From a virus (lineage: Duplodnaviria > Heunggongvirae > Uroviricota > Caudoviricetes), in IMG/VR virus record IMGVR_UViG_3300025087_000051: 14,626 bases of DNA; one strand, given 5' to 3'. Both the position numbers and the translations under genes were made by a program. The notes beneath the pieces were generated by a model. That model was not told where the DNA came from. It made no database searches and saw only the letters and a program-made list of their open reading frames with translations. Of this stretch, positions 4,927 to 14,626 are shown in pieces; the first letter of the stretch is position 1; each line of letters begins with the position of its first letter.

Positions 4927-5175
4927 TTGAATAATAAAATAATAAAAATTGTAGATGAGAATAAAAACGAAATTAAGTCAGATCAAAAAATATGTCATCG
5001 GTTTCAGCCAGTAGTGATTCCATATTCTGCTCAAACTTTAGCAGGTGTTGAAACCAGAATTGATATGAAACAAATCAATTGTTATAAGGAAAAATGTGAA
5101 CTTTGGTATGCGGAAATGGGAATGTGTGCGGAAAAGTACAATTATATTAAAAACAAAGAAGGAGAGGTAATGTGA
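4927..5175 (+). CDS. Cys-motif protein A (paralog of next gene), 82 aa
   Basis: AGGAG SD, TTG start; CxRFQP...CxxxKCxxWxxExxMC. Confidence 0.8.
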   Translation: MNNKIIKIVDENKNEIKSDQKICHRFQPVVIPYSAQTLAGVETRIDMKQINCYKEKCELWYAEMGMCAEKYNYIKNKEGEVM

Positions 5176-5471
5176 CCGATACTAATAACATAGGCAACGA
5201 AAATAAAGCAGCGGAAAAGATGGTTTTAGGATTTTGTAGTAAGTTTCAACCTCAAATAGTTCCGCACGCCGTGGGGCCTGGTAAGACATTAATAAATTAT
5301 AAACCGTATTATTTTCCATGTACCGGCGACAAATGTACTGATTCTTGGTGTCACGAGCATAAGATGTGTAGACATGCTTGTGAACATTTGGAGGCGTTTC
5401 ATCCTTTAGAAGAAGGAGAAGATGAAGAATCTATAATGGAAAACGATGAAGAGGTTTTGCAAGTCCCATGA
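5172..5471 (+). CDS. Cys-motif protein B with acidic tail, 99 aa
   Basis: GTGA coupling; CxKFQP...CxxxKCxxxWxxExxMC. Confidence 0.8.
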   Translation: MTDTNNIGNENKAAEKMVLGFCSKFQPQIVPHAVGPGKTLINYKPYYFPCTGDKCTDSWCHEHKMCRHACEHLEAFHPLEEGEDEESIMENDEEVLQVP

Positions 5472-6409: not shown

Positions 6410-8038
6410 GTGAGCGAAACAGTTGATAATCAAATTAAAGGCGAGGTTGGGTTAGAAGATGTTCTCAGTTCTAAGCCGCCAGGCTCGGTCGTTAAAGTTA
6501 ATACGGATGGTACGGTTGAAATTACATCCAAAGAGGGCAAGAAGAAAAAAAGAGAAGTAGAGGCCGAACAAGAATTTGATAATATATTAAAAGCATGGTC
6601 AAAAAATGTTGAACAAGTTGCAGAAATTTGGTTCTATCAGTGTTTGCGCAGTTCTTCCTTTGGTGTTCCTCAAACATTTGTGGGGACAGAACCGTTAGAA
6701 ACTTTTTTTGATGAAGATGGTGAAGAAGTTGAAAATATGGAGCGGTGGTTGGGGCAGAGAGCAGAGGGTGGATTTGCATATACGTGTCAATTACGAATAA
6801 ATGGAAAGCCTGTACCGAAGCAACCAGAACGAAAATATTATTATAAAGAGGATGGTGAAATATTTCGAGAGTTGGGTGGTTTTTGGGGAAATAACGAAAT
6901 GGATGTGAGAGATAAGAAGGGCAAAAATAATGATACAGAAGCGATACTTAGTCATGTTGATAAAACGAATCGAATAATAATGGACATGGCAGAGAACAAG
7001 AAAGAGTCGGTTGATCCGAATGTTATTCAAAGCTTAGTTAGTGCTGTTATAGCAAAGGATACGAAAAAAGATAATAATGATGGAATAGTTCCGGCTTTAA
7101 TGTCGGGATTTACCGCAATTATTCAAGCCGTTGCGGCCAAACCAACCGAACAAAAAAATGATAATGGCCTTTTTCTCGAAATGTTTCGTTCCGTATCGGA
7201 AGGAATGAAAGAGATGGGGCGGGGTACAAATGAATCTATTAACAAAATATCCCAGATGATGCTTGATATGAATCGCATGATGTTAGAGATGCAGACGAAA
7301 AGCATGGAGATGAGAAATAACGATAAGATCGAAACGATGAAGACGATGAATGAAATGCAGGAGAAAATGTTATTATTAGTTAGGGAGATAAAAGAAAAAG
7401 GTAGCGATAATTCTGCTATTGGTGGATTAGATCATGTGAATAAATTTCTCGATCAAGCGTTGAAAACCCAAAGCTTAATGTCTGGATTTAACGCTCAGTT
7501 AATGGGTGGCATGATGAATAGTTTTAAGGATAGTGTCTCCGTAATGAAAGATTTGAAAGATTTGAGGGGCGATGGAGAATCTGAAGAAAAGGAGTCTGAA
7601 ACCGTACTTGATAAAATAATCAATAAAGCTCCTGAGTATATGGAGGCTGGCGCAAAATTTATCGGTTCGATGCGTGGTAGTAATCAATTTCCTATAAATA
7701 ATAATATTCCTGATAATGATATAAGTGAAAAGGAGAACAGTGTGGTAAACGAAAATATTCAAGACGTACCAAGAAATGATGAAATGACTGAGAAAGAATT
7801 ATTAAATGATATTATAGAAGATATTATGGGTTATCTCGAAGATAAAAAGTCACACGAAGAAATAGCGGGTGAGGTCGTTGGTTTATACAGTGGTTATAAA
7901 GATAAATTAATAAGCATATTGAATAAGAATAAAGATGAATTGATGGCAATATTGAATAAAGAAAATCTTAACAGTATTGTTAGTAATTTCGGAGTAATGA
8001 AAAGTATATTGGGGTTAATTAAGAAGAAATTAATATAA
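6410..8038 (+). CDS. Large protein with globular N-terminus, Met-rich coiled-coil middle and helical C-terminus, 542 aa
   Basis: GTG start after GGAG; long ORF; 15 Met in one 64-residue stretch; no catalytic motif recognised. Confidence 0.9.
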   Translation: MSETVDNQIKGEVGLEDVLSSKPPGSVVKVNTDGTVEITSKEGKKKKREVEAEQEFDNILKAWSKNVEQVAEIWFYQCLRSSSFGVPQTFVGTEPLETFFDEDGEEVENMERWLGQRAEGGFAYTCQLRINGKPVPKQPERKYYYKEDGEIFRELGGFWGNNEMDVRDKKGKNNDTEAILSHVDKTNRIIMDMAENKKESVDPNVIQSLVSAVIAKDTKKDNNDGIVPALMSGFTAIIQAVAAKPTEQKNDNGLFLEMFRSVSEGMKEMGRGTNESINKISQMMLDMNRMMLEMQTKSMEMRNNDKIETMKTMNEMQEKMLLLVREIKEKGSDNSAIGGLDHVNKFLDQALKTQSLMSGFNAQLMGGMMNSFKDSVSVMKDLKDLRGDGESEEKESETVLDKIINKAPEYMEAGAKFIGSMRGSNQFPINNNIPDNDISEKENSVVNENIQDVPRNDEMTEKELLNDIIEDIMGYLEDKKSHEEIAGEVVGLYSGYKDKLISILNKNKDELMAILNKENLNSIVSNFGVMKSILGLIKKKLI

Positions 8039-8665: not shown

Positions 8666-8716
8666 AAATAAATAATAGTTACCAGTTGTTCCGTTAACAG
8701 GGTACTCGCACGAACG

Positions 8717-8753
8717 AACCCCTGAAAGTTTGATAACTTTCAGGGGTTTTTTT
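8717..8753 (+). terminator. Rho-independent terminator ending the early block
   Basis: Perfect 14-bp stem AACCCCTGAAAGTT/AACTTTCAGGGGTT, loop TGAT, T7 tract 8747-8753. Confidence 0.9.
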
Positions 8754-8756
8754 ATT

Positions 8757-8777
8757 GTCAAAAATTGGTCAAAAATT
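8757..8777. repeat. Tandem 10-bp direct repeat GTCAAAAATT x2 (11-bp period), candidate operator
   Basis: Exact copies at 8757-8766 and 8768-8777, overlapping a possible TTGTCA-16-TAATAT promoter upstream of the right-hand operon. Confidence 0.55.
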
Positions 8778-8827
8778 AATATTAAAATCTGATTTATTCA
8801 AATTTATATGAAAAGGAGAGGTAAGGA

Positions 8828-9445
8828 ATGAAGATAGGTAAAAAAGCGAAAGAAATGTTTAAAATTTTGGGGATTATTGGACTGTCTGCTTGTTTATTCG
8901 TTGGTAATCCATGTAAGGCTGCCGATATTACCCGTGCTACAATTAATATGCAAGACCCTAACGATCCGATGCGAATTGCCGACACGGATGCTTTTTACGT
9001 AGTTGATGTGTCTACGACAGGAACGAATACTACAAATAGTCATGTCGTCAAATTAAACAACATTGATGCGGTATTGCTACAACTTTCTGTAGCAGATATA
9101 ACGGTTGGTTCGGTTAGTTTTAGTCTTGAACAATCACTCGATGGTGTTACGTATGGTTCGGTAACTGCTTCTCAGATGATAAAACTAACAGACACTCTCA
9201 CGACTAGCACTGAATTTGGTTCTGATACTGTGGTATATTTTGCTGGTGATTATTTCGGTACTCATACAGTAACTTTTGGTACTACCACTGTTTACGGTTC
9301 TACAAGCGCAACAAATATTCATAGTTTTTACGCTGTCAGAACTATGGGTGATCGTTTAAGAATTGGTTGTAACCATGTATTGACCGGTACTGATACTGGT
9401 ACTTACAAAGTTGTAATTAAGAAAAGTACAAAAGGTAAACTCTAA
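8828..9445 (+). CDS. Exported beta-rich protein (jelly-roll/spike-like), 205 aa
   Basis: AAGGAGAGG SD; signal peptide (basic n-region, hydrophobic core, CKA|AD); Thr/Val-rich beta pattern with SLEQSLDGVTY. Confidence 0.85.
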   Translation: MKIGKKAKEMFKILGIIGLSACLFVGNPCKAADITRATINMQDPNDPMRIADTDAFYVVDVSTTGTNTTNSHVVKLNNIDAVLLQLSVADITVGSVSFSLEQSLDGVTYGSVTASQMIKLTDTLTTSTEFGSDTVVYFAGDYFGTHTVTFGTTTVYGSTSATNIHSFYAVRTMGDRLRIGCNHVLTGTDTGTYKVVIKKSTKGKL

Positions 9446-9494
9446 TTAATATACTTACATACATTCCTTGATTAATTTTTGGAGATAAAACAAA

Positions 9495-10073
9495 ATGTTA
9501 AAAATCATTAGAAACAAAAATGTAAAATATATCCATACCGAAAATATTAAATATGTCATAGAAAATGCTGAGGGATATTTGGTTTGTATCTCTACGGGCA
9601 AAGAGCAGGTAAAAAAGGATGAATTTGATCTTGAAAAATCAAAATTGAAAAAGTGCGGAGATACTCATTACAACACTGATTATGTTTGCGATGTAGAAGT
9701 AGTAAAGGATCGTACCGCATTTGTCGTTTCGACCAATAATGAAACTGGCAAAAGATTTATCGCTACGGGCGATTTGAAAAATTTGATCGATGGTTTCTAC
9801 GAAGTAAATCGTAACGATGGTACTTCCGTATACATAAATCCTGACAATGTTCATGTTGTGGAGAAGCCATACATTACAGTAACGGCAAAGATAATGAATA
9901 ATGGCGTTATTACAGAAGTTCCAATCGAAGCCGGTGATCAAGTTACGAGTTGTACCGTAACGGCTGTTGGTGGCAAGAAGTTTAAATTCGATGCGCAAGA
10001 AGCGGTACAACTATTATCTTACTATAAAGAAGAAGCAGTTCCGGCTAAAAAGAAAACACCGCCTCCTGCATAA
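9495..10073 (+). CDS. Protein with three LytTR/FlbD-like repeats, 192 aa
   Basis: Repeats YIHTENIKYV / HYNTDYVCDV / YINPDNVHVV, each followed by a beta-hairpin and TGK/GGK; GGAG SD. Confidence 0.85.
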   Translation: MLKIIRNKNVKYIHTENIKYVIENAEGYLVCISTGKEQVKKDEFDLEKSKLKKCGDTHYNTDYVCDVEVVKDRTAFVVSTNNETGKRFIATGDLKNLIDGFYEVNRNDGTSVYINPDNVHVVEKPYITVTAKIMNNGVITEVPIEAGDQVTSCTVTAVGGKKFKFDAQEAVQLLSYYKEEAVPAKKKTPPPA

Positions 10074-11149
10074 TGAATAATAAGCAACTGGTCGCCAAAT
10101 TATTAGAGGAGCAAAGTTCAGGAAGCGACAGAGACAATGATGTTGTGATTGGAAAGATGAGGGCTGTGACTGGTAATTTATTCAAGCGATATAATGTACC
10201 TGAATTTGATTATCAGTCTGAACTTGAAACTTTGAGCCATGCGCTTTCAGATGAAGATAATTACATAAAGGCTAGAAATCTTGTCGGTAAGTCGGTTGAT
10301 TTTACAGATGATGATAGGGTTGACAGACCAGTAATTATCGGTGCTTTTGCTCTTGCGCTTGGAAATAATATTCGGATCGGTGGTAATATTGATAATCCTT
10401 TTATTGTTCAATATATAGAAAAGGATTTCGCCGCTAAAAGCGGTATATCAAATTTTGAAATGGTTGATGGCTTGGGGTCTTGGGTAGTTGTTGGAAAATC
10501 AAGTAGTTATTGGGATGGATATGGTGGGATAGACGTAGAAAAACAGATTAATCTTAATCGTACTTCTAACGCTAATCGAGAAGAAATACATAGCGGGTCA
10601 AAAGGCATAGAAACAACTGCTAAAAAAATGAAAAGTATTACTCAGCAGTATTTGAGTGATGATTATTTTGCAAATGATAGAAAATTGTTACACGGTTGGG
10701 CAAGAAATGTATTAAGAGAAAAGGGTGTATCGAATCGGGGAAATTACATGAAAGTGTTTGCAGACAAATTAACTGATAAAAATGTTGTACGATACATGAA
10801 AGACCCTCTTTATCTAAAACATGAAAGGATTGATAGTCGTGAATGGTTGCAAGTTCCTGGAAGAATTCTCGATTATGGCATAGGAGATTGTGACGATCTC
10901 TCATTGTGTATTGGGCTATTGGCTGGACTGTCTGGATTGGGATTAACGTATAGAGTTGCGGGGTGTGCGCCGAAAAAACCAAAGGCGTATTCACACGTTT
11001 ATGATATTATACATTACGGAAATAGTGGCGGCGTTGATGGGTTTACAGGCTCAAAAGACGTAGTGATTGATATAGTTTATCAAAAAAGAGGTGGGACTTT
11101 TGGAAAAGAACCTAAAAAGTTTAAGTTTTTCGATACAAGAGTGTTATAA
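10073..11149 (+). CDS. Transglutaminase-like cysteine protease/transglutaminase with long N-terminal extension, 358 aa
   Basis: VRYMKDP...E...P..IL...GDCDD (C273), YSHVY (H308), VIDIV (D333): C-H-D triad order of the transglutaminase-like superfamily; TAATG coupling. Confidence 0.9.
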   Translation: MNNKQLVAKLLEEQSSGSDRDNDVVIGKMRAVTGNLFKRYNVPEFDYQSELETLSHALSDEDNYIKARNLVGKSVDFTDDDRVDRPVIIGAFALALGNNIRIGGNIDNPFIVQYIEKDFAAKSGISNFEMVDGLGSWVVVGKSSSYWDGYGGIDVEKQINLNRTSNANREEIHSGSKGIETTAKKMKSITQQYLSDDYFANDRKLLHGWARNVLREKGVSNRGNYMKVFADKLTDKNVVRYMKDPLYLKHERIDSREWLQVPGRILDYGIGDCDDLSLCIGLLAGLSGLGLTYRVAGCAPKKPKAYSHVYDIIHYGNSGGVDGFTGSKDVVIDIVYQKRGGTFGKEPKKFKFFDTRVL

Positions 11150-11164
11150 ATAAAAAACTAGCAA

Positions 11165-11350
11165 ATGAAAACAAGAAAAAATTATTATCCAGACGAGTAC
11201 AGGGAGGAATATGAAACAGGAAGCAATGTCGGTCATGATGTTTATTACTCTTCTTTAATGTCTTATGATAATACACTGAAGTATTTGGATGGTTTTATTG
11301 CTGGATATAAGAACATTTTAAAGAAAAATAAACATCGGTGGGGTGTGTAA
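11165..11350 (+). CDS. Small Tyr-rich hypothetical protein, 61 aa
   Basis: ORF track; YLDGFIAGY helix; weak SD. Confidence 0.6.
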   Translation: MKTRKNYYPDEYREEYETGSNVGHDVYYSSLMSYDNTLKYLDGFIAGYKNILKKNKHRWGV

Positions 11351-11389
11351 GCAATAAGCAAAACGGTTGCGGGTAGCTCCCCTAACTGT

Positions 11390-11461
11390 CCAACAAGTAA
11401 ATAAAAGCCAGAATTATCTCTAACTGTCTGGCGGTTAGAGGTTTTCTGGCTTTTTTGTTGG
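11390..11461 (+). terminator. Long compound hairpin with U-tract (terminator/attenuator)
   Basis: AAAAGCCAGAA 11403-11413 / TTCTGGCTTTT 11444-11454, inner ATCTCTAAC/GTTAGAGGT, outer CCAACAA/TTGTTGG; T6 at 11451-11456. Confidence 0.7.
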
Positions 11462-11504
11462 CTTAAGAATTAAATTAAACGAATCAGAATCAGGAGAATA
11501 AATA

Positions 11505-12377
11505 ATGATTGGACAATTACTATCACTTGGCGCATTGGCGATTGGATTATCAGCACTTGGCAAAAAAGGAGGTGGAGGGGGTGGAGGTAGGGGTGGTAGT
11601 AGACCGTCAAGGCCTGCATCGAGACCTGCATCGAGACCATCAAGACCTGCAAGACCATCAAAATCATCCAGCAGTTCTGCTAAAAAATCTGCGGCAAGAC
11701 AGGCAAAGTCATCGGCTAAAACTGTAAAAGCTGCTAAAACAAGGGCTGTTAAGGCTGTTAAAGCTATCAAGGCTGCACAAAAGAAACAGGCAAAGAGTAC
11801 GAAGAAACAATTAAAAACTACTCTGAAACAAAGAGGTAAATTACTTAAATCAACAGTAAGACAAAGGAAAAAATTAACTACTTCATTAGATAAGGAACAA
11901 AAGAAAAGAATTAAACAGGGGTTGGTCGTTGCTAAGAAAAAGAAAAGGATTGATACTCTGAAAGAAAAGATCAAAAAGGAGAAGCCTGAGAAAGTAAAAG
12001 ATACGGCGGTAGACGAGAAGAAAGAAACGAAGGAAAAGGAAACGGAAGAAACGAAAGAATTGGAATCTGGAACGGACACAGATACGAGTACTGATACGGA
12101 TAGCGGGCAAGAAACGAGTTATGACGAAGGAACAGACTCCGGTAGCGAAGAAGAGACAAGTTATGACGAAAGGACTGATTCTGGTTCTGAATCGGAAGAT
12201 AGTGGATATGAAGAGGAAGAATCGGAAGAGACAGAAGAAGAATATGAAGATGAAAGCGAAGATGAAGACATAGACGAAGAAGAAGAGGAGGAGGAGGAGG
12301 AGGAGGAAGAAAATGAAACGGAAGAAGAGGACAATTATAACTATACGGAAGAAGGCGAAGAAGACGAAACTGTTTAA
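11505..12377 (+). CDS. Bipolar low-complexity protein: hydrophobic N-terminus, Gly run, RPS/RPA repeats, H1-like Lys/Ala region, Asp/Glu-rich tail, 290 aa
   Basis: CAGGAG SD; composition read directly from the translation. Confidence 0.9.
   Translation: MIGQLLSLGALAIGLSALGKKGGGGGGGRGGSRPSRPASRPASRPSRPARPSKSSSSSAKKSAARQAKSSAKTVKAAKTRAVKAVKAIKAAQKKQAKSTKKQLKTTLKQRGKLLKSTVRQRKKLTTSLDKEQKKRIKQGLVVAKKKKRIDTLKEKIKKEKPEKVKDTAVDEKKETKEKETEETKELESGTDTDTSTDTDSGQETSYDEGTDSGSEEETSYDERTDSGSESEDSGYEEEESEETEEEYEDESEDEDIDEEEEEEEEEEEENETEEEDNYNYTEEGEEDETV
11601..11660 (+). repeat. Coding tandem repeat RPS-RPAS-RPAS-RPS-RPA-RPS
   Basis: CCTGCATCGAGA x2 within degenerate 9/12-nt units. Confidence 0.8.
12096..12191 (+). 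repeat. Coding acidic repeat TDSG(Q/SEE)ETSYDE(G/R) x2.5
   Basis: AGTTATGACGAA occurs twice; three TDSG units. Confidence 0.75.
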
Positions 12378-12387
12378 GGAGTAGAAA

Positions 12388-13089
12388 ATGTTTGATTCGA
12401 TTCTCGGAAGTCTTTTCGGTAATAAAAAAACAGAAACGAAAAAAGCTGTATCGAGCAATGTTTTGAATCGAATCAAAAGAAGAAAATTAATCATTCAAAA
12501 ATTTAAAAATATTAATCCGAATGATAATTCAAAAAGAGCAAAAACGGCAAAGGAATTATTAAGTGTTTCGAAAACAGAGGGAGAACGAAAAGCTGCCCGC
12601 AAGTTTTATAAGGATGAAACAACACTTAGTAATCTAAAGAACAAGATTAAAAGTTCTGATTCTATAAACGAGAAATTAAGTCTGGCCAGGCAAGGAAAAA
12701 GATTAGCGACCAAACAACAAAAGGAATTTTGGGAAAATCTTATAAACAAGTTGCAGAAACGAAAACAAGCCAGAACTAGCGCAATAGAAAGTAGAAAAGA
12801 AGCATTGGTTATTACTGATACGAGTAAAGAACAAGACAAAGAAGAAGATAAAGATATGGAAATCGAAGAAAAACAGGAACAAAGCATTGAAGAAAACGAA
12901 TCAGGAGAAGATACAGACAATGATTCTGATAATGATATAGAAGAGACGGAAGAAGAAGAGGAAGAGGAAGAAGAAGAGGAAGAAATAGAAGAACAAGAAG
13001 AAGATGATAACGAAGATATGGATGGAAAAGAAGAGGAAGAACGAGACGATACTTTAGGAAATGATATAAACGATAAAGATGAAAACTAA
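12388..13089 (+). CDS. Bipolar protein: amphipathic N-terminus, basic helical region, Asp/Glu-rich tail, 233 aa
   Basis: AAGGAG SD; MFDSILGSLFG start; K/R-rich to about residue 135, then D/E-rich. Confidence 0.9.
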   Translation: MFDSILGSLFGNKKTETKKAVSSNVLNRIKRRKLIIQKFKNINPNDNSKRAKTAKELLSVSKTEGERKAARKFYKDETTLSNLKNKIKSSDSINEKLSLARQGKRLATKQQKEFWENLINKLQKRKQARTSAIESRKEALVITDTSKEQDKEEDKDMEIEEKQEQSIEENESGEDTDNDSDNDIEETEEEEEEEEEEEEIEEQEEDDNEDMDGKEEEERDDTLGNDINDKDEN

Positions 13090-13111
13090 AATTCAACATA
13101 AGGAATAATCA

Positions 13112-13393
13112 ATGGCAAGTATTGAAGCTGGCAGTAAACAAATAAGTGAAGGGTTGAAAAAAGGTACAGATATTTTAACGAATCTTTTCGATTCAGTAAA
13201 AAAAATAGTTCCTGACAGTGGCTATTCCGCTTCTAAACCTATAAAGAGTGGTGAGACGGTCGAGATACGAGCTGGCGAGAAAAGCACAAAAAGCTCTGGT
13301 GGTTTTTTGGAAAAAATTATGAATAAAAAAGTTCTCGTTCCGATATTGGTGATTGCTGGAATTTATTTTGGTCTTAAAAAATTAACAAGATAA
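13112..13393 (+). CDS. Small C-terminally membrane-anchored protein, 93 aa
   Basis: AAGGA SD; KKVLVPILVIAGIYFGLKKLTR is a short TM segment flanked by Lys. Confidence 0.85.
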   Translation: MASIEAGSKQISEGLKKGTDILTNLFDSVKKIVPDSGYSASKPIKSGETVEIRAGEKSTKSSGGFLEKIMNKKVLVPILVIAGIYFGLKKLTR

Positions 13394-13406
13394 AAAAGAA
13401 AAAAAT

Positions 13407-13646
13407 ATGAAATGGTATGTTGGAGTGCAAAAACCTTACAGTAGTCCCCGTGTTGGTATTGTATTTCCATATAGTGGAAAAGTAACCGAAAAGAAATTTG
13501 GAGAATTAATAGGATATGTTTTTGGTGGATACGGTTCTAAAAAAGAAGCATGGAATGTTGCAATGTATCAAGGATTTATTCCAGTTTCAAAAACGTATAG
13601 ACAGGTGAAAAGTGCAATTACAAATAAACAATATTTTTTAGCGTAA
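13407..13646 (+). CDS. Hypothetical protein, 79 aa
   Basis: ORF track; aromatic/Gly-rich; no SD (A-rich leader). Confidence 0.7.
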   Translation: MKWYVGVQKPYSSPRVGIVFPYSGKVTEKKFGELIGYVFGGYGSKKEAWNVAMYQGFIPVSKTYRQVKSAITNKQYFLA

Positions 13647-13668
13647 TTATTTTTTAAGGAGATTTATT

Positions 13669-14626
13669 ATGCCTCAGTTAACGGTATTGAGCGGTGTTGG
13701 CTGCCCTCCGAGAAGAGGAACGATACGATTGAGAGAAAGATTGAGATCGAGATCGAAACTAAGGACAAGATCAAAAAGATTATTATTAAGATCAAAAAGA
13801 AAAAAAAGAAGAAACAGTAGACTGGGTCTTGGTTTTTTCAAGTGTGCTACAAAAAGTAGAAATGTCGATCCTTCTTCTCATCGTCATTTAAGTAAGTCTA
13901 TGATTAGTCGTCATCACAGAATCAATAGCATAATGAAACGGTTCAAGGTAAAGAAACTGAAATTTAAAGCTACTACGAAAAGAAAAAAAAGAGCAAAGAA
14001 GAGGAAAATTATTAGTCACGTAAGTTCTATTGGAAATCTTTATGGGGGTGTAATGAGTATGCGGAAACGAAGGAAGACTAAAAGGTCGAAGGGGAGAACG
14101 TTGGCACGAAGGGCTGGTGTTCGCAGAGGGAAATGTAAAAAGGTTGGAAAAAGGAGAGTTTGTAGGACTCGAAGGGGGAAAGGACATATTCGTAAAGATA
14201 CGAAAGGACGTAAACATAACTCAACTGGTAAATTTTCAATGAGAGGTATCGGGGGTGTCGGCGGGTTCGGATTAGCTAATGTTGGTGCGTTCAGGGCTGA
14301 TTCTTGCGCTCACAGAGTTTCTAGGGCTGGTTACGGTGGTTGGAGAAAGAAAAGGAGACATAGTAAAAGAAGGTCGAGAGGTCTTTTCGGATTAGGAAAT
14401 ATTGGAATATCAATGCCGAAGGTAAGCTCAATCACATCCATGCTACCATCGTTAAACATTAACAGTTTGAAGAAATACGGTGCGGTTGTTTCCGGTATGA
14501 CCACACCTTTGTTATTGCAACGCTTCCTGCCTAAGAATTTGACATTTGGCTGGAAAGGGCTTTTAACATATTTGGGTCTTGGCGGTGTAACGATAATGGT
14601 TAGCAAGAAAGTACCGTTTATGAAAT
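13669..14626 (+). CDS. Arg/Lys-rich protamine-like putative core (poly)protein, >=319 aa, 3' end outside window
   Basis: Hand-translated and absent from the track because it has no stop in the window; AAGGAG SD then ATG 13669; MPQLTVLSGVGCPPRRGTIRLRERLRSRSKLRTRSKR... open to the edge; four basic blocks, Gly/hydrophobic linkers and a hydrophobic C-terminal part. Confidence 0.9.
   Translation, partial: MPQLTVLSGVGCPPRRGTIRLRERLRSRSKLRTRSKRLLLRSKRKKRRNSRLGLGFFKCATKSRNVDPSSHRHLSKSMISRHHRINSIMKRFKVKKLKFKATTKRKKRAKKRKIISHVSSIGNLYGGVMSMRKRRKTKRSKGRTLARRAGVRRGKCKKVGKRRVCRTRRGKGHIRKDTKGRKHNSTGKFSMRGIGGVGGFGLANVGAFRADSCAHRVSRAGYGGWRKKRRHSKRRSRGLFGLGNIGISMPKVSSITSMLPSLNINSLKKYGAVVSGMTTPLLLQRFLPKNLTFGWKGLLTYLGLGGVTIMVSKKVPFMK

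Follow-up and report, generated by a model that had tools for sequence, protein, structure and literature searches.

The window, which is the whole 14,626-nt stretch of DNA analysed here, corresponds to G000:18443-33068 in the ~78.5-kb genome of an uncultured phage. All listed ORFs in the window are on the + strand, as are the two signals that set off the block of interest. An intrinsic terminator (8716–8749; 15-bp stem with six GC pairs, 4-nt loop, T-run) closes the upstream operon; it is the strongest of seven terminator-like sites, a number to be read against the 6.1 found in shuffled sequences. Next comes a promoter-like site (8755–8782; TTGTCA-16-TAATAT), putatively that of the virion operon, that matches the consensus at only 9 of 12 positions. 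A strong ribosome-binding site, AAAGGAGAGG, precedes the ATG at 8828. An earlier note, made from the sequence alone, had described a strong terminator followed by a co-directional block, and this is indeed the arrangement. The block in the window is probably the leading half of the late (virion) operon.

The first gene of the block (8828–9445) encodes a 205-aa protein, rich in Thr, Gly and Val, whose N terminus carries a signal or anchor segment (hydrophobic residues 11–29), in keeping with its earlier description as exported. It has no Pfam or PHROG match but is conserved in L020, a relative from Hainich groundwater. The 192-aa protein encoded next (9495–10073) is likewise conserved in L020 and without a family match in Pfam or PHROG. 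It had been called a repeat protein; however, its self-alignment score of 25 compares with a shuffle mean of 27.7, and it has no internal repeat. Beyond the gene for a 358-aa enzyme (10073–11149; see below) lies that for a 61-aa small protein (11165–11350), known from its ORF reading only; a weak, sub-threshold match to Sulfatase was taken as chance. Toward the end of the block are genes for a 93-aa protein (13112–13393; pI 9.8) whose C-terminal hydrophobic segment (73–92) bears out the tail anchor assigned to it, and for a 79-aa basic protein (13407–13646; pI 9.9). Both are conserved in L019 and L020. The gene order of the module is kept in the Hainich relatives, and many of its proteins are anchored, i.e., carry a hydrophobic segment. 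What the earlier note observed in this block largely holds, and we rate it as partly confirmed.

Three proteins of the block are strongly charged. Those of 290 aa (11505–12377) and 233 aa (12388–13089), both conserved in L019 and L020, were correctly recognised as bipolar, with maximum net charges per 40 aa of +16/−33 and +12/−29, respectively. The former has a hydrophobic N-terminal anchor (residues 1–19), a Gly run, Ser-Arg-Pro repeats, a Lys/Ala-rich basic middle and a poly-acidic tail; the latter has a Lys-rich N-half and a poly-Glu/Asp C-half. The last ORF (13669–14626) has its first 319 codons in the window and continues beyond it as far as 14979 on L003, encoding 436 aa in all. Its protamine-like character is real, with 85 Lys and Arg against 4 Asp and Glu in residues 1–240, but the true length adds a hydrophobic segment (325–343) and an acidic, Cys-containing tail of DYDDVDG repeats. 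Positions of Cys, His and Gly, including the Cys and His of the Arg/Lys-rich N-domain, are conserved at 46% identity. We regard this as a candidate membrane-anchored, DNA-condensing core protein.

The ~78.5-kb genome was recovered intact from Rifle groundwater and is present in many samples as 78.5–78.6-kb contigs with varying break points; it is circular or circularly permuted. Its close relatives come from Hainich groundwater. Pfam and PHROG scans matched no window ORF to terminase, portal or tail families, in agreement with the earlier note, which would have given up its reading had HK97 capsid or terminase genes appeared downstream. Neither these nor a portal were detected in precomputed Pfam assignments for all genes of the genome, and tail families are absent from the same listing; scanning each large ORF against Pfam and PHROG gave the same picture. 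The only unassigned proteins of at least 400 aa are a Met-rich protein (542 aa), a protein with a metzincin motif (496 aa), the basic 436-aa protein and a beta-helix protein (589 aa). An A32- or FtsK/HerA-type packaging ATPase, which the earlier note had proposed as a check, was searched for in the genome and not found. Elsewhere, the genome encodes an integrase, TnpB and a separate 3D-domain wall-enzyme candidate; its Pfam lists hold no conjugation genes. Downstream of the window are genes for a protein with a tail-fibre-type Gly-rich domain (Gly_rich_2 / tail-fibre PHROG) and for a beta-helix protein. Sec-type signal peptides are present on seven downstream proteins, an unusual trait for the spikes of a capsid that assembles internally.

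The search of the flanks for a double jelly-roll (DJR) capsid protein, also suggested earlier, was positive. Next beyond the window is a gene for a 304-aa candidate capsid-associated protein (L003:15179-16093), and the second gene past the window (L003:16219-17001) encodes a 260-aa protein whose AF2 model (pLDDT 93.3, pTM 0.88) consists of two 8-stranded sandwiches. Its best full-length matches include the coat proteins of STIV, PRD1 and PM2, with VIA-align Z-scores of 11.3 (STIV MCP; 218 residues aligned), 9.2 (PRD1 P3) and 8.8 (PM2 P2), followed by PBCV-1 (8.0) and by FLiP and phiCjT23 (7.7); cellular enzymes of the GH172/DUF2961 type reach scores (11.2 and 11.1) on a par with those of the viral capsid proteins. 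The protein is predicted to form ring-like trimers in which the C-barrel of one copy touches the N-barrel of the next. The homotrimer prediction scored 0.91, against 0.00 for the best control; among solved structures, 20 of 30 one-chain pairs and 1 of 23 single chains attain that mark. Runs agreed in at least 84% of contacts, with partner pLDDT of at least 87. DJR trimers have already been solved, so likeness to them may contribute to this score. Sequence similarity persists between the two barrels, and the family, without a PHROG match, has 1305 representatives in a 50%-identity library. Together, these data strongly support a shell built from the 260-aa protein. In five diverged lineages, the capsid gene pair is immediately preceded by a gene for an Arg/Lys-rich protein, and the order of a protein with an Arg/Lys-rich N-domain and a hydrophobic domain, a 304-like protein and a DJR protein recurs in L011, L014, L023 and L024.

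[quoted passage not shown] The capsid-family HMM matches SSIP-1 gp47 (E = 2.8e-8), and HMMs of the enzyme family match gp34 (E = 3.1e-8 and 1.4e-10) with ADCD and HVY motifs aligned; both SSIP-1 proteins are annotated "structural protein". These matches are short and modest (~29–35 bits), and hhalign gives the capsid family only 57% probability against gp47. Sequence comparison nonetheless strongly supports homology of the 358-aa enzyme to an annotated SSIP-1 virion structural protein. In both genomes, the enzyme gene is upstream of the capsid gene and head-tail genes are absent. Beyond gp47 and gp34, however, no other protein pair is detectable; the AAA_25 P-loop virion protein of SSIP-1, gp40, has no counterpart in the ~78.5-kb genome, which is ~1.8 times larger and encodes Arg/Lys-rich proteins and signal-peptide spike candidates that SSIP-1 does not. 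The sources also differ: low-GC groundwater DNA here, and a salt-lake Salisaeta host (Bacteroidota) for SSIP-1. The earlier note could name no described bacterial system with this combination; to conclude that none matches would go too far, as SSIP-1, a distant relative, is in culture.

Our reading, to which we give a probability of about 75%, is that the block forms the front of the virion operon in a tailless, icosahedral bacterial virus, uncultured and distantly related to SSIP-1. We rate the earlier interpretation as partly supported. That the virus is non-tailed, as first proposed, is well supported by the DJR capsid protein, by the two homologues of SSIP-1 virion proteins, and by a genome in which terminase, portal and HK97 capsid were not detected. 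A tailed phage with head and tail genes diverged beyond detection, its jelly-roll protein being a fibre, decoration or carbohydrate-binding module, would fit the tail-fibre-type and beta-helix proteins downstream and the automatic Uroviricota labels of look-alike Atlas clusters. We think this very improbable, since no ORF of at least 400 aa remains as a possible terminase or portal, the DJR matches are full-length with a predicted ring trimer, and two of the proteins have homologues in the virion of SSIP-1, a tailless phage. Least probable of all is a non-viral, plasmid-like element encoding secreted and membrane proteins. The seven signal-peptide proteins, the integrase and TnpB genes and the failure to find a packaging enzyme are what such an element might present, whereas the capsid-type fold with its predicted trimer, the SSIP-1 virion homologues and Pfam lists free of conjugation genes speak against it.

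The enzyme was correctly predicted to be a transglutaminase-like protein with a Cys-His-Asp triad (Cys273/His308/Asp333). D272-C273-D274, H308 and D333 are invariant across 16 homologues. The 358-aa protein has no direct Pfam match, but its profile aligns with that of a PF01841 protein (hhalign probability, 98.6%), and SSIP-1 gp34 itself passes PF01841. It has a helical N-terminal extension of ~170 aa and no membrane anchor; by contrast, gp34 has a C-terminal anchor at 282–300, the L011 homologue has two such segments, and that of L024 is also anchored, with a weak match to the BTLCP peptidase family C93.

The earlier note had this enzyme mature an adenovirus-like core at xGxG sites. As a protease acting at Gly-Gly-type sites on protamine-like and bipolar precursors, it would, like adenain in adenovirus, be a virion protein (by SSIP-1 annotation), its triad is invariant, and the acidic extensions beside basic domains could be pro-regions. 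The 436-aa protein has 7 adenain-type motifs, slightly more than the 3.05 ± 1.63 expected by chance (p ~0.03), and those at 8–9, 122–126 and 221–224 are conserved at 46% identity. The enrichment is marginal, though: the 290-, 233- and 304-aa charged proteins (three of four) lack the motif, and the capsid protein has four that are presumably structural turns, which makes the pattern unspecific. Among transglutaminase-like enzymes, Gly-Gly specificity is not known to occur. With the anchored homologues also against it, this role is unsupported and seems unlikely, and processing of virion proteins in any form hardly less so. The anchors fit a role in entry or at the cell wall equally well and would place the homologues in a delivery membrane. 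A virion-borne endopeptidase that cuts the cell wall for genome entry or exit has parallels in the lytic enzyme of the PRD1 virion and in PeiW and PeiP, characterised transglutaminase-fold Cys-His-Asp enzymes of viruses that cut cell-wall peptide links; the weak C93 match of the L024 homologue points the same way. PeiW and PeiP are pseudomurein endoisopeptidases, the lysis enzymes of tailed archaeal (methanogen) viruses, and gave no sequence match to the 358-aa enzyme. Given the anchorless, extended window protein and the separate wall-enzyme candidate, we hold a wall-cutting role to be a serious possibility that falls somewhat short of even odds, and wall cutting at entry to be at least as likely as maturation at Gly motifs. 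The charged proteins pose a similar choice. The 290- and 233-aa proteins, perhaps with the arms of the 304- and 436-aa proteins, might be assembly scaffolds or electrostatic membrane–capsid linkers: the basic stretch is paired with a longer poly-acidic tail, which gives a net pI of 4.6–5.0, poor for neutralising DNA, and the bipolar proteins were detected only in close relatives. Predicted topology would also put the basic domains on the shell side of a PRD1-type membrane. The composition of the 436-aa N-domain, its conserved Cys and His and the positional conservation of an Arg-rich counterpart in distant lineages make us doubt this alternative to condensers.

For the tailless virus that we favour, a condensed nucleoprotein core is plausible, judging DNA binding from composition. 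We lean slightly toward a 436-aa protein that sits in the viral membrane, with its Arg/Lys-rich Cys/His N-domain binding, condensing or tethering the genome; the 290- and 233-aa proteins, together with the 304-aa protein's charged arm, might act as charge buffers between the DNA, the membrane and the shell. As no packaging motor was detected, the genome may become enclosed through condensation instead of being pumped in. A topology problem for the core model comes from the positive-inside rule, which predicts that the basic N-domain is retained on the cytoplasmic side of the membrane; within an internal vesicle of the PRD1 type, that side faces the shell and not the DNA. A lipid membrane, DNA binding and any proteolysis are putative features of the particle. 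The signal-peptide beta-proteins and the Gly-rich and beta-helix proteins further downstream may serve in host recognition.

Known DJR viruses share parts of this picture. PRD1 (Tectiviridae), PM2 (Corticoviridae), STIV (Turriviridae) and FLiP/phiCjT23 share the full-length coat match (Z = 7.7–11.3), the ring trimer, as predicted here, and a module with many small membrane proteins; however, genomes of this type are 9–18 kb (PMC6260650, Table 1), not ~78.5 kb. The present genome also differs from theirs in its lack of a detected FtsK/HerA-type ATPase, its sequence-similar barrels and its protamine-like proteins. The adenovirus core, with proteins VII, V and Mu and the adenain protease, resembles the present system in DJR capsid lineage, very basic, presumably DNA-bound proteins, a virion cysteine enzyme, and hydrophobic-x-Gly-x-Gly-like motifs, here in one basic protein. 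The enzyme here, by contrast, has a probable transglutaminase fold and Cys-His-Asp order, not those of adenain or Ulp1-type proteases, and the basic proteins lack homology, three of the four charged ones also lacking the Gly motif. PBCV-1 differs in its eukaryotic host, far larger coat protein, genome several times larger and lack of detectable sequence relation, but it, too, is a large virus with a DJR coat, and has basic proteins associated with its DNA. Chloroviruses, to which it belongs, have an internal membrane and protein-associated DNA (PMC3281028).

The window corresponds to bases 18443-33068 of a 37-kb IMG/VR record that is rated 47% complete. Proteins identical to those encoded in the window are found on contigs of 78.5-78.6 kb from many samples, one of which is a Rifle aquifer scaffold. 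These contigs have differing break points, and we therefore read the genome as circular or circularly permuted, with a length of about 78.5 kb. For the genome survey, one contig of this type was walked, with 78,004 bases joined. Across the complete genome, neither Pfam nor PHROG detected terminase, portal, HK97-type capsid or tail families, and no unassigned ORF of a size suited to a terminase, portal or HK97-fold capsid remains. Only four unassigned proteins have at least 400 aa: a 542-aa Met-rich protein, a 496-aa protein with a metzincin motif, a 436-aa basic protein, and a 589-aa protein that is a right-handed beta-helix (Atlas TM about 0.7). Automatic catalogues label such genomes as tailed phages by default.

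Just outside the window, at L003:16219-17001 (L003 being the longer record that continues past the window), lies the gene for a 260-aa protein from a family of 1305 representatives (E <=1e-3, 50%-identity library). A PHROG match was found for none of 92 members of this family. The AF2 model, built with a 92-sequence alignment (pLDDT 93.3, pTM 0.88), comprises two eight-stranded sandwiches with a short helix in each, so that a single chain holds two eight-stranded jelly rolls in succession, as in known double jelly-roll (DJR) coat proteins. In an exhaustive VIA-align search, the STIV coat protein ranked top (Z 11.3, 218 residues aligned), with cellular GH172/DUF2961 proteins at ranks 2-3 (Z 11.2 and 11.1); scores for other viral coats were 9.2 for PRD1 P3, 8.8 for PM2 P2, 8.0 for PBCV-1, and 7.7 for FLiP and phiCjT23. 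The matches, viral coats and GH172/DUF2961 proteins alike, span both barrels. A Foldseek search agreed, its top ranks being taken by tandem jelly-roll enzymes. Three copies of the 260-aa protein were predicted as a ring, in which the C-barrel of one copy touches the N-barrel of the next; the homotrimer score was 0.91 versus 0.00 for the best control, at least 84% of contacts were shared between runs, and partner pLDDT was at least 87. Of proteins solved as one-chain pairs, 20 of 30 attain this mark, compared with 1 of 23 solved as single chains; the pass may owe partly to likeness because DJR trimers are solved structures. In the predicted homotrimer, six barrels make up a pseudo-hexagonal ring. 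An earlier note on this DNA had claimed a non-tailed virus and had proposed searching the flank for a DJR capsid protein. The 260-aa protein fits, by its model and its fold matches, and with a predicted DJR coat and no terminase, portal or HK97 capsid detected in the complete genome, the non-tailed virus is well supported.

The two barrels of the 260-aa protein are still alike in sequence, with a self-score of 64 versus 30 +/- 5 in shuffles, and may thus go back to a duplication that is fairly recent or has diverged slowly. To our knowledge, recognizable sequence likeness between the two barrels is unusual among DJR coat proteins. L011, a distant relative with a contig of 78,968 bp, has three tandem capsid-family paralogues of 311, 330 and 289 aa (L011:8062-10870), suggesting hetero-oligomeric capsomers in some lineages. 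Two distant members of the family that were checked for gene context sat on contigs under 2 kb. A pattern scan of IMG/VR returned a single locus for the capsid family and nothing for the 358-aa enzyme discussed below. In addition, neither the enzyme nor the capsid protein had a tblastn match among 50,697 phage records, profile searches of PDB sequences found nothing for either family (15 enzyme sequences, 92 capsid sequences), and no integrated relative turned up when species genomes were scanned.

The nearest cultured relative of the groundwater virus is the Salisaeta phage SSIP-1, a tailless, icosahedral virus with an internal membrane, a 44-kb genome and T=49 (PMC6356626, PMC6260650). In reviews, SSIP-1 is nearly without database relatives (PMC6356626, PMC6260650), an orphan with an uncertain coat fold (PMC6260650). 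Among 908 ORFs, the profile of the 260-aa family matched SSIP-1 gp47, annotated as "structural protein" (hmmsearch E 2.8e-8, 28.9 bits), and hhalign of the family against gp47 gave 57% probability (E 1e-4). The best BFVD match of the 260-aa model is an unnamed 256-aa entry (TM 0.67); gp47 likewise has 256 aa. Profiles of the 358-aa enzyme matched a second "structural protein", gp34 (E 3.1e-8 and 1.4e-10); the motifs of the catalytic Cys and His line up. gp34 passes PF01841 (Transglut_core) at 29.6 bits versus a cut-off of 23, as do its counterparts in L011 and L024, the latter another diverged lineage. No other SSIP-1 protein has a match in the groundwater genome, and phmmer of all SSIP-1 ORFs against all genome ORFs gave no match at E 0.01, gp40 included. 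SSIP-1 gp40 (L025:24775-25737) passes Pfam AAA_25 with 42.9 bits and has the Walker A sequence GEKGSGKS; it is a candidate packaging ATPase of RecA/KaiC-like, not FtsK-like, type.

By its predicted coat fold, the groundwater virus belongs with the DJR internal-membrane viruses, and it appears to work like them. Described prokaryotic members are small, with genomes of 9-18 kb for PRD1, PM2, FLiP and STIV; that of SSIP-1 has 44 kb (PMC6260650), and that of the groundwater virus 78.5 kb. The groundwater virus also differs from the DJR membrane viruses in having a conserved Arg-rich protein and exported spike candidates, and in showing no recognizable packaging ATPase; a counterpart of SSIP-1 gp40 (AAA_25) was not found. 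Within the DJR lineage, large genomes and protein-condensed cores had been known from eukaryotic members alone, adenoviruses and giant viruses among them, and our literature search found no description of large groundwater DJR phages or of bacterial membrane phages with protamine-like cores. If the assignment is true, the size range of the bacterial members is extended several-fold, and SSIP-1 is tied to a very large uncatalogued family with 1305 representative clusters. It would also become testable whether the condensed core and the cysteine enzyme of the virion predate the eukaryotic branch or evolved independently of it.

The DNA of the window is low in GC (29-40%), and every sizeable ORF is on the + strand. 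After a terminator at 8716-8749, with a 15-bp stem and a T-run, a promoter-like site and a strong ribosome-binding site precede ATG 8828, where the first operon product begins, a 205-aa protein with a hydrophobic segment at its N-terminus. The second product is a 192-aa protein and the third is the 358-aa transglutaminase-like enzyme (10073-11149). Next come a 61-aa protein; a 290-aa product that is anchored at its N-terminus, rich in Lys/Ala in the middle and poly-acidic at the tail (11505-12377); a 233-aa protein with a Lys-rich part and then a poly-acidic part (12388-13089); a tail-anchored 93-aa protein; a basic 79-aa protein; and the 436-aa protein, which starts at 13669 and leaves the window, its full extent being read from the longer record. 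None of these products has a Pfam or PHROG match. The gene block listed in the earlier note is largely confirmed, with the terminator, the co-directional operon, and the charged and anchored proteins all present; the "repeat protein" is the exception, because self-comparison of the 192-aa protein revealed no internal repeat. Beyond the window, the operon encodes proteins of 304, 260, 193 and 241 aa, a 254-aa protein (Gly_rich_2 / tail-fibre PHROGs), proteins of 220, 287 and 378 aa, and the 589-aa beta-helix protein.

The 304-aa protein (L003:15179-16093), considered as a possible single jelly-roll penton, and its relatives always adjoin the DJR gene; hhalign of this family gave 14.5% probability to the DJR family and no clear match to SSIP-1 gp46. 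Atlas look-alikes, which are leads only, were P2_N/P2_C for the 260-aa protein and Nanovirus_coat for the 304-aa protein (score 0.76). Just upstream of the terminator, at 6410-8038, the window encodes the 542-aa protein, which is Met/Glu/Lys-rich, probably coiled-coil, and without a family match. A 705-aa protein of similar flavor is found at the same position in L011, with undetectable similarity between the two; the 542-aa protein may serve in scaffolding or size determination. Small Cys-rich proteins of 82 and 99 aa, encoded side by side at 4927-5175 and 5172-5471, are apparent paralogues, each with a Cys-x-(R/K)-F-Q-P motif followed by more Cys/His.

The earlier note had also proposed an adenovirus-like condensed core. 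Residues 1-240 of the 436-aa protein contain 85 Lys+Arg versus 4 Asp+Glu, together with 5 Cys and 9 His; a hydrophobic segment at 325-343 is followed by a Cys-containing acidic tail with DYDDVDG-type repeats. The protein is more than low complexity, because Cys, His and several Gly positions are kept at 46% identity. A word-based search with its conserved half retrieved close relatives only (73-100% identity). In four relatives (L023, L011, L014 and L024), with capsid identity down to below 30%, an Arg/Lys-rich gene lies directly upstream of the pair formed by the 304-like and DJR genes. The encoded counterparts start with Met-Pro and have an N-domain with a net charge of +19 to +22 per 40 aa, after which comes a hydrophobic domain rich in Gly/Ala. 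Since hhalign of the 436-aa family against the basic proteins of L011 gave 9% and 46% probability, only architecture and position are common to them; SSIP-1 has nothing comparable. The strongest basic patches of the whole genome are in the 436-, 304-, 290- and 233-aa products, all in the virion module, although the 290- and 233-aa proteins are net acidic, a caution for a DNA-binding reading. On these sequence features, we put the probability that the 436-aa protein is a membrane-anchored DNA-binding or tethering protein at roughly 0.55. A further caution is that the positive-inside rule would keep the basic domains on the cytoplasmic side, and in a vesicle of the PRD1 type this side is toward the shell and away from the DNA.

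The acidic tail of the 436-aa protein (L003:14700-14979) and the acidic N-terminus of the 304-aa protein (L003:15179-15330) have repeats of the same DYDD-x-x-G type, such that the facing ends of the two neighbor genes encode similar acidic stretches. The charged arm is wholly absent from the 304-like protein of L011. The Arg-rich proteins of L024 (8069-8887), L014 (3349-4128) and L011 (6569-7231) contain repeated basic-basic-Asn-Pro (RRNP, RKNP, HKNP), often with Gly next, while that of the window has one KRRN-S-R-L-G-L-G; the basic-basic-Asn-Pro repeats may be sites or just composition.

In the 358-aa enzyme, D272-C273-D274, H308 and D333 are kept in 16 of 16 homologues down to 41% identity, so that C273, H308 and D333 make an invariant Cys-His-Asp triad in that order. 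The enzyme-family profile matched a PF01841 protein with 98.6% probability over residues 153-319, and it also matched the proteins of L011, L024 and SSIP-1 that are PF01841-positive, yet direct Pfam scans of the enzyme and 15 close homologues gave no match. For these reasons, we consider the protein to be, in all probability, a diverged cysteine enzyme of the transglutaminase-core type, extended at the N-terminus by a helical domain of ~170 aa. Its AF2 model (16 homologues) has a pLDDT of 48.7, with the catalytic region below 50. The earlier note had assigned the enzyme to maturation of the core by cleavage at Gly motifs. It is the sole cysteine enzyme in the gene lists, from all of which an adenain / Ulp1-type cysteine protease is absent. 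Adenain-type sites, i.e., (M/I/L)xGx-G or (M/I/L)xGG-x, number 7 in the 436-aa protein versus 3.05 +/- 1.63 in shuffles, a marginal excess; there are none in the 290-, 233- and 304-aa charged proteins, and 4 in the capsid protein itself. Protease maturation at such sites is thus unsupported, and a maturation protease is an unlikely identity for this enzyme. Among viral transglutaminase-fold enzymes, PeiW and PeiP cut cell-wall peptide links. Homologues of the 358-aa enzyme in SSIP-1 (segment 282-300), L011 and L024 have C-terminal membrane anchors. Because of these anchors and the activity of PeiW and PeiP, we rate a wall-cutting entry enzyme above a maturation protease, as a tentative assignment held at somewhat less than even odds. 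Overall, the earlier interpretation is partly supported: a tailless virus is well supported and, with a basic protein conserved in position, a condensed core is plausible, while Gly-site protease maturation is unsupported.

The earlier note had pointed to an A32/FtsK-like packaging ATPase, and none was found in the whole 78.5-kb genome: no gene has a Pfam match to an FtsK/HerA (A32-like) ATPase, and the only Walker A motifs are those of an SbcC-like ATPase and of a helicase, plus two at implausible sites, with none in the virion module. It is possible that a diverged packaging ATPase is present. The many anchored proteins and the kinship with membrane-containing SSIP-1 (PMC6356626) point indirectly to a possible internal lipid membrane. 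Seven operon proteins begin with Sec-type signal/anchor segments, namely the 205-aa protein in the window and the 241-, 254-, 220-, 287-, 378- and 589-aa proteins beyond it, in a run from L003:17705 to L006:13784. The 241-aa (L003:17705-18430) and 287-aa (L006:10001-10864) proteins are paralogues (E about 1e-19). These signal-peptide spike candidates are not shared with SSIP-1, and seven of them are odd because the capsid is presumably assembled in the cytoplasm. An alternative, which we regard as improbable, is that this bacterial DJR virus has given up ATP-driven genome packaging. The membrane-anchored protamine-like protein and the bipolar charged proteins would then condense the 78.5-kb genome on the cytoplasmic face of a membrane patch, the shell would close around the condensed nucleoprotein, and the transglutaminase-fold virion enzyme would subsequently trim acidic pro-regions. 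Because the predicted topology has the basic domains cytoplasmic and the seven spike-like proteins exported, the lipid layer might even lie outside, as an envelope with Sec-exported spikes, an architecture that we do not know from any bacterial DJR virus.

The remainder of the genome encodes a ThyX with an intein, the SbcC-like ATPase, a radical SAM enzyme, three helicases, a DNA methylase, an integrase, two TnpB proteins, AbiEii, a 3D-domain protein, Band_7 and ERCC4. The 496-aa protein (L008:13875-15365) contains HELLHNFGLDHE (HExxHxxGxxH), a metzincin zinc-protease motif, with no family match above threshold, and is a second candidate protease of the genome. The genome is rich in selfish elements, the two TnpB genes included. 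An intein that has an HNH domain splits ThyX (L002:1824-3395), and a LAGLIDADG intein-like insert is present in a helicase of 901 aa (L002:14477-17182).
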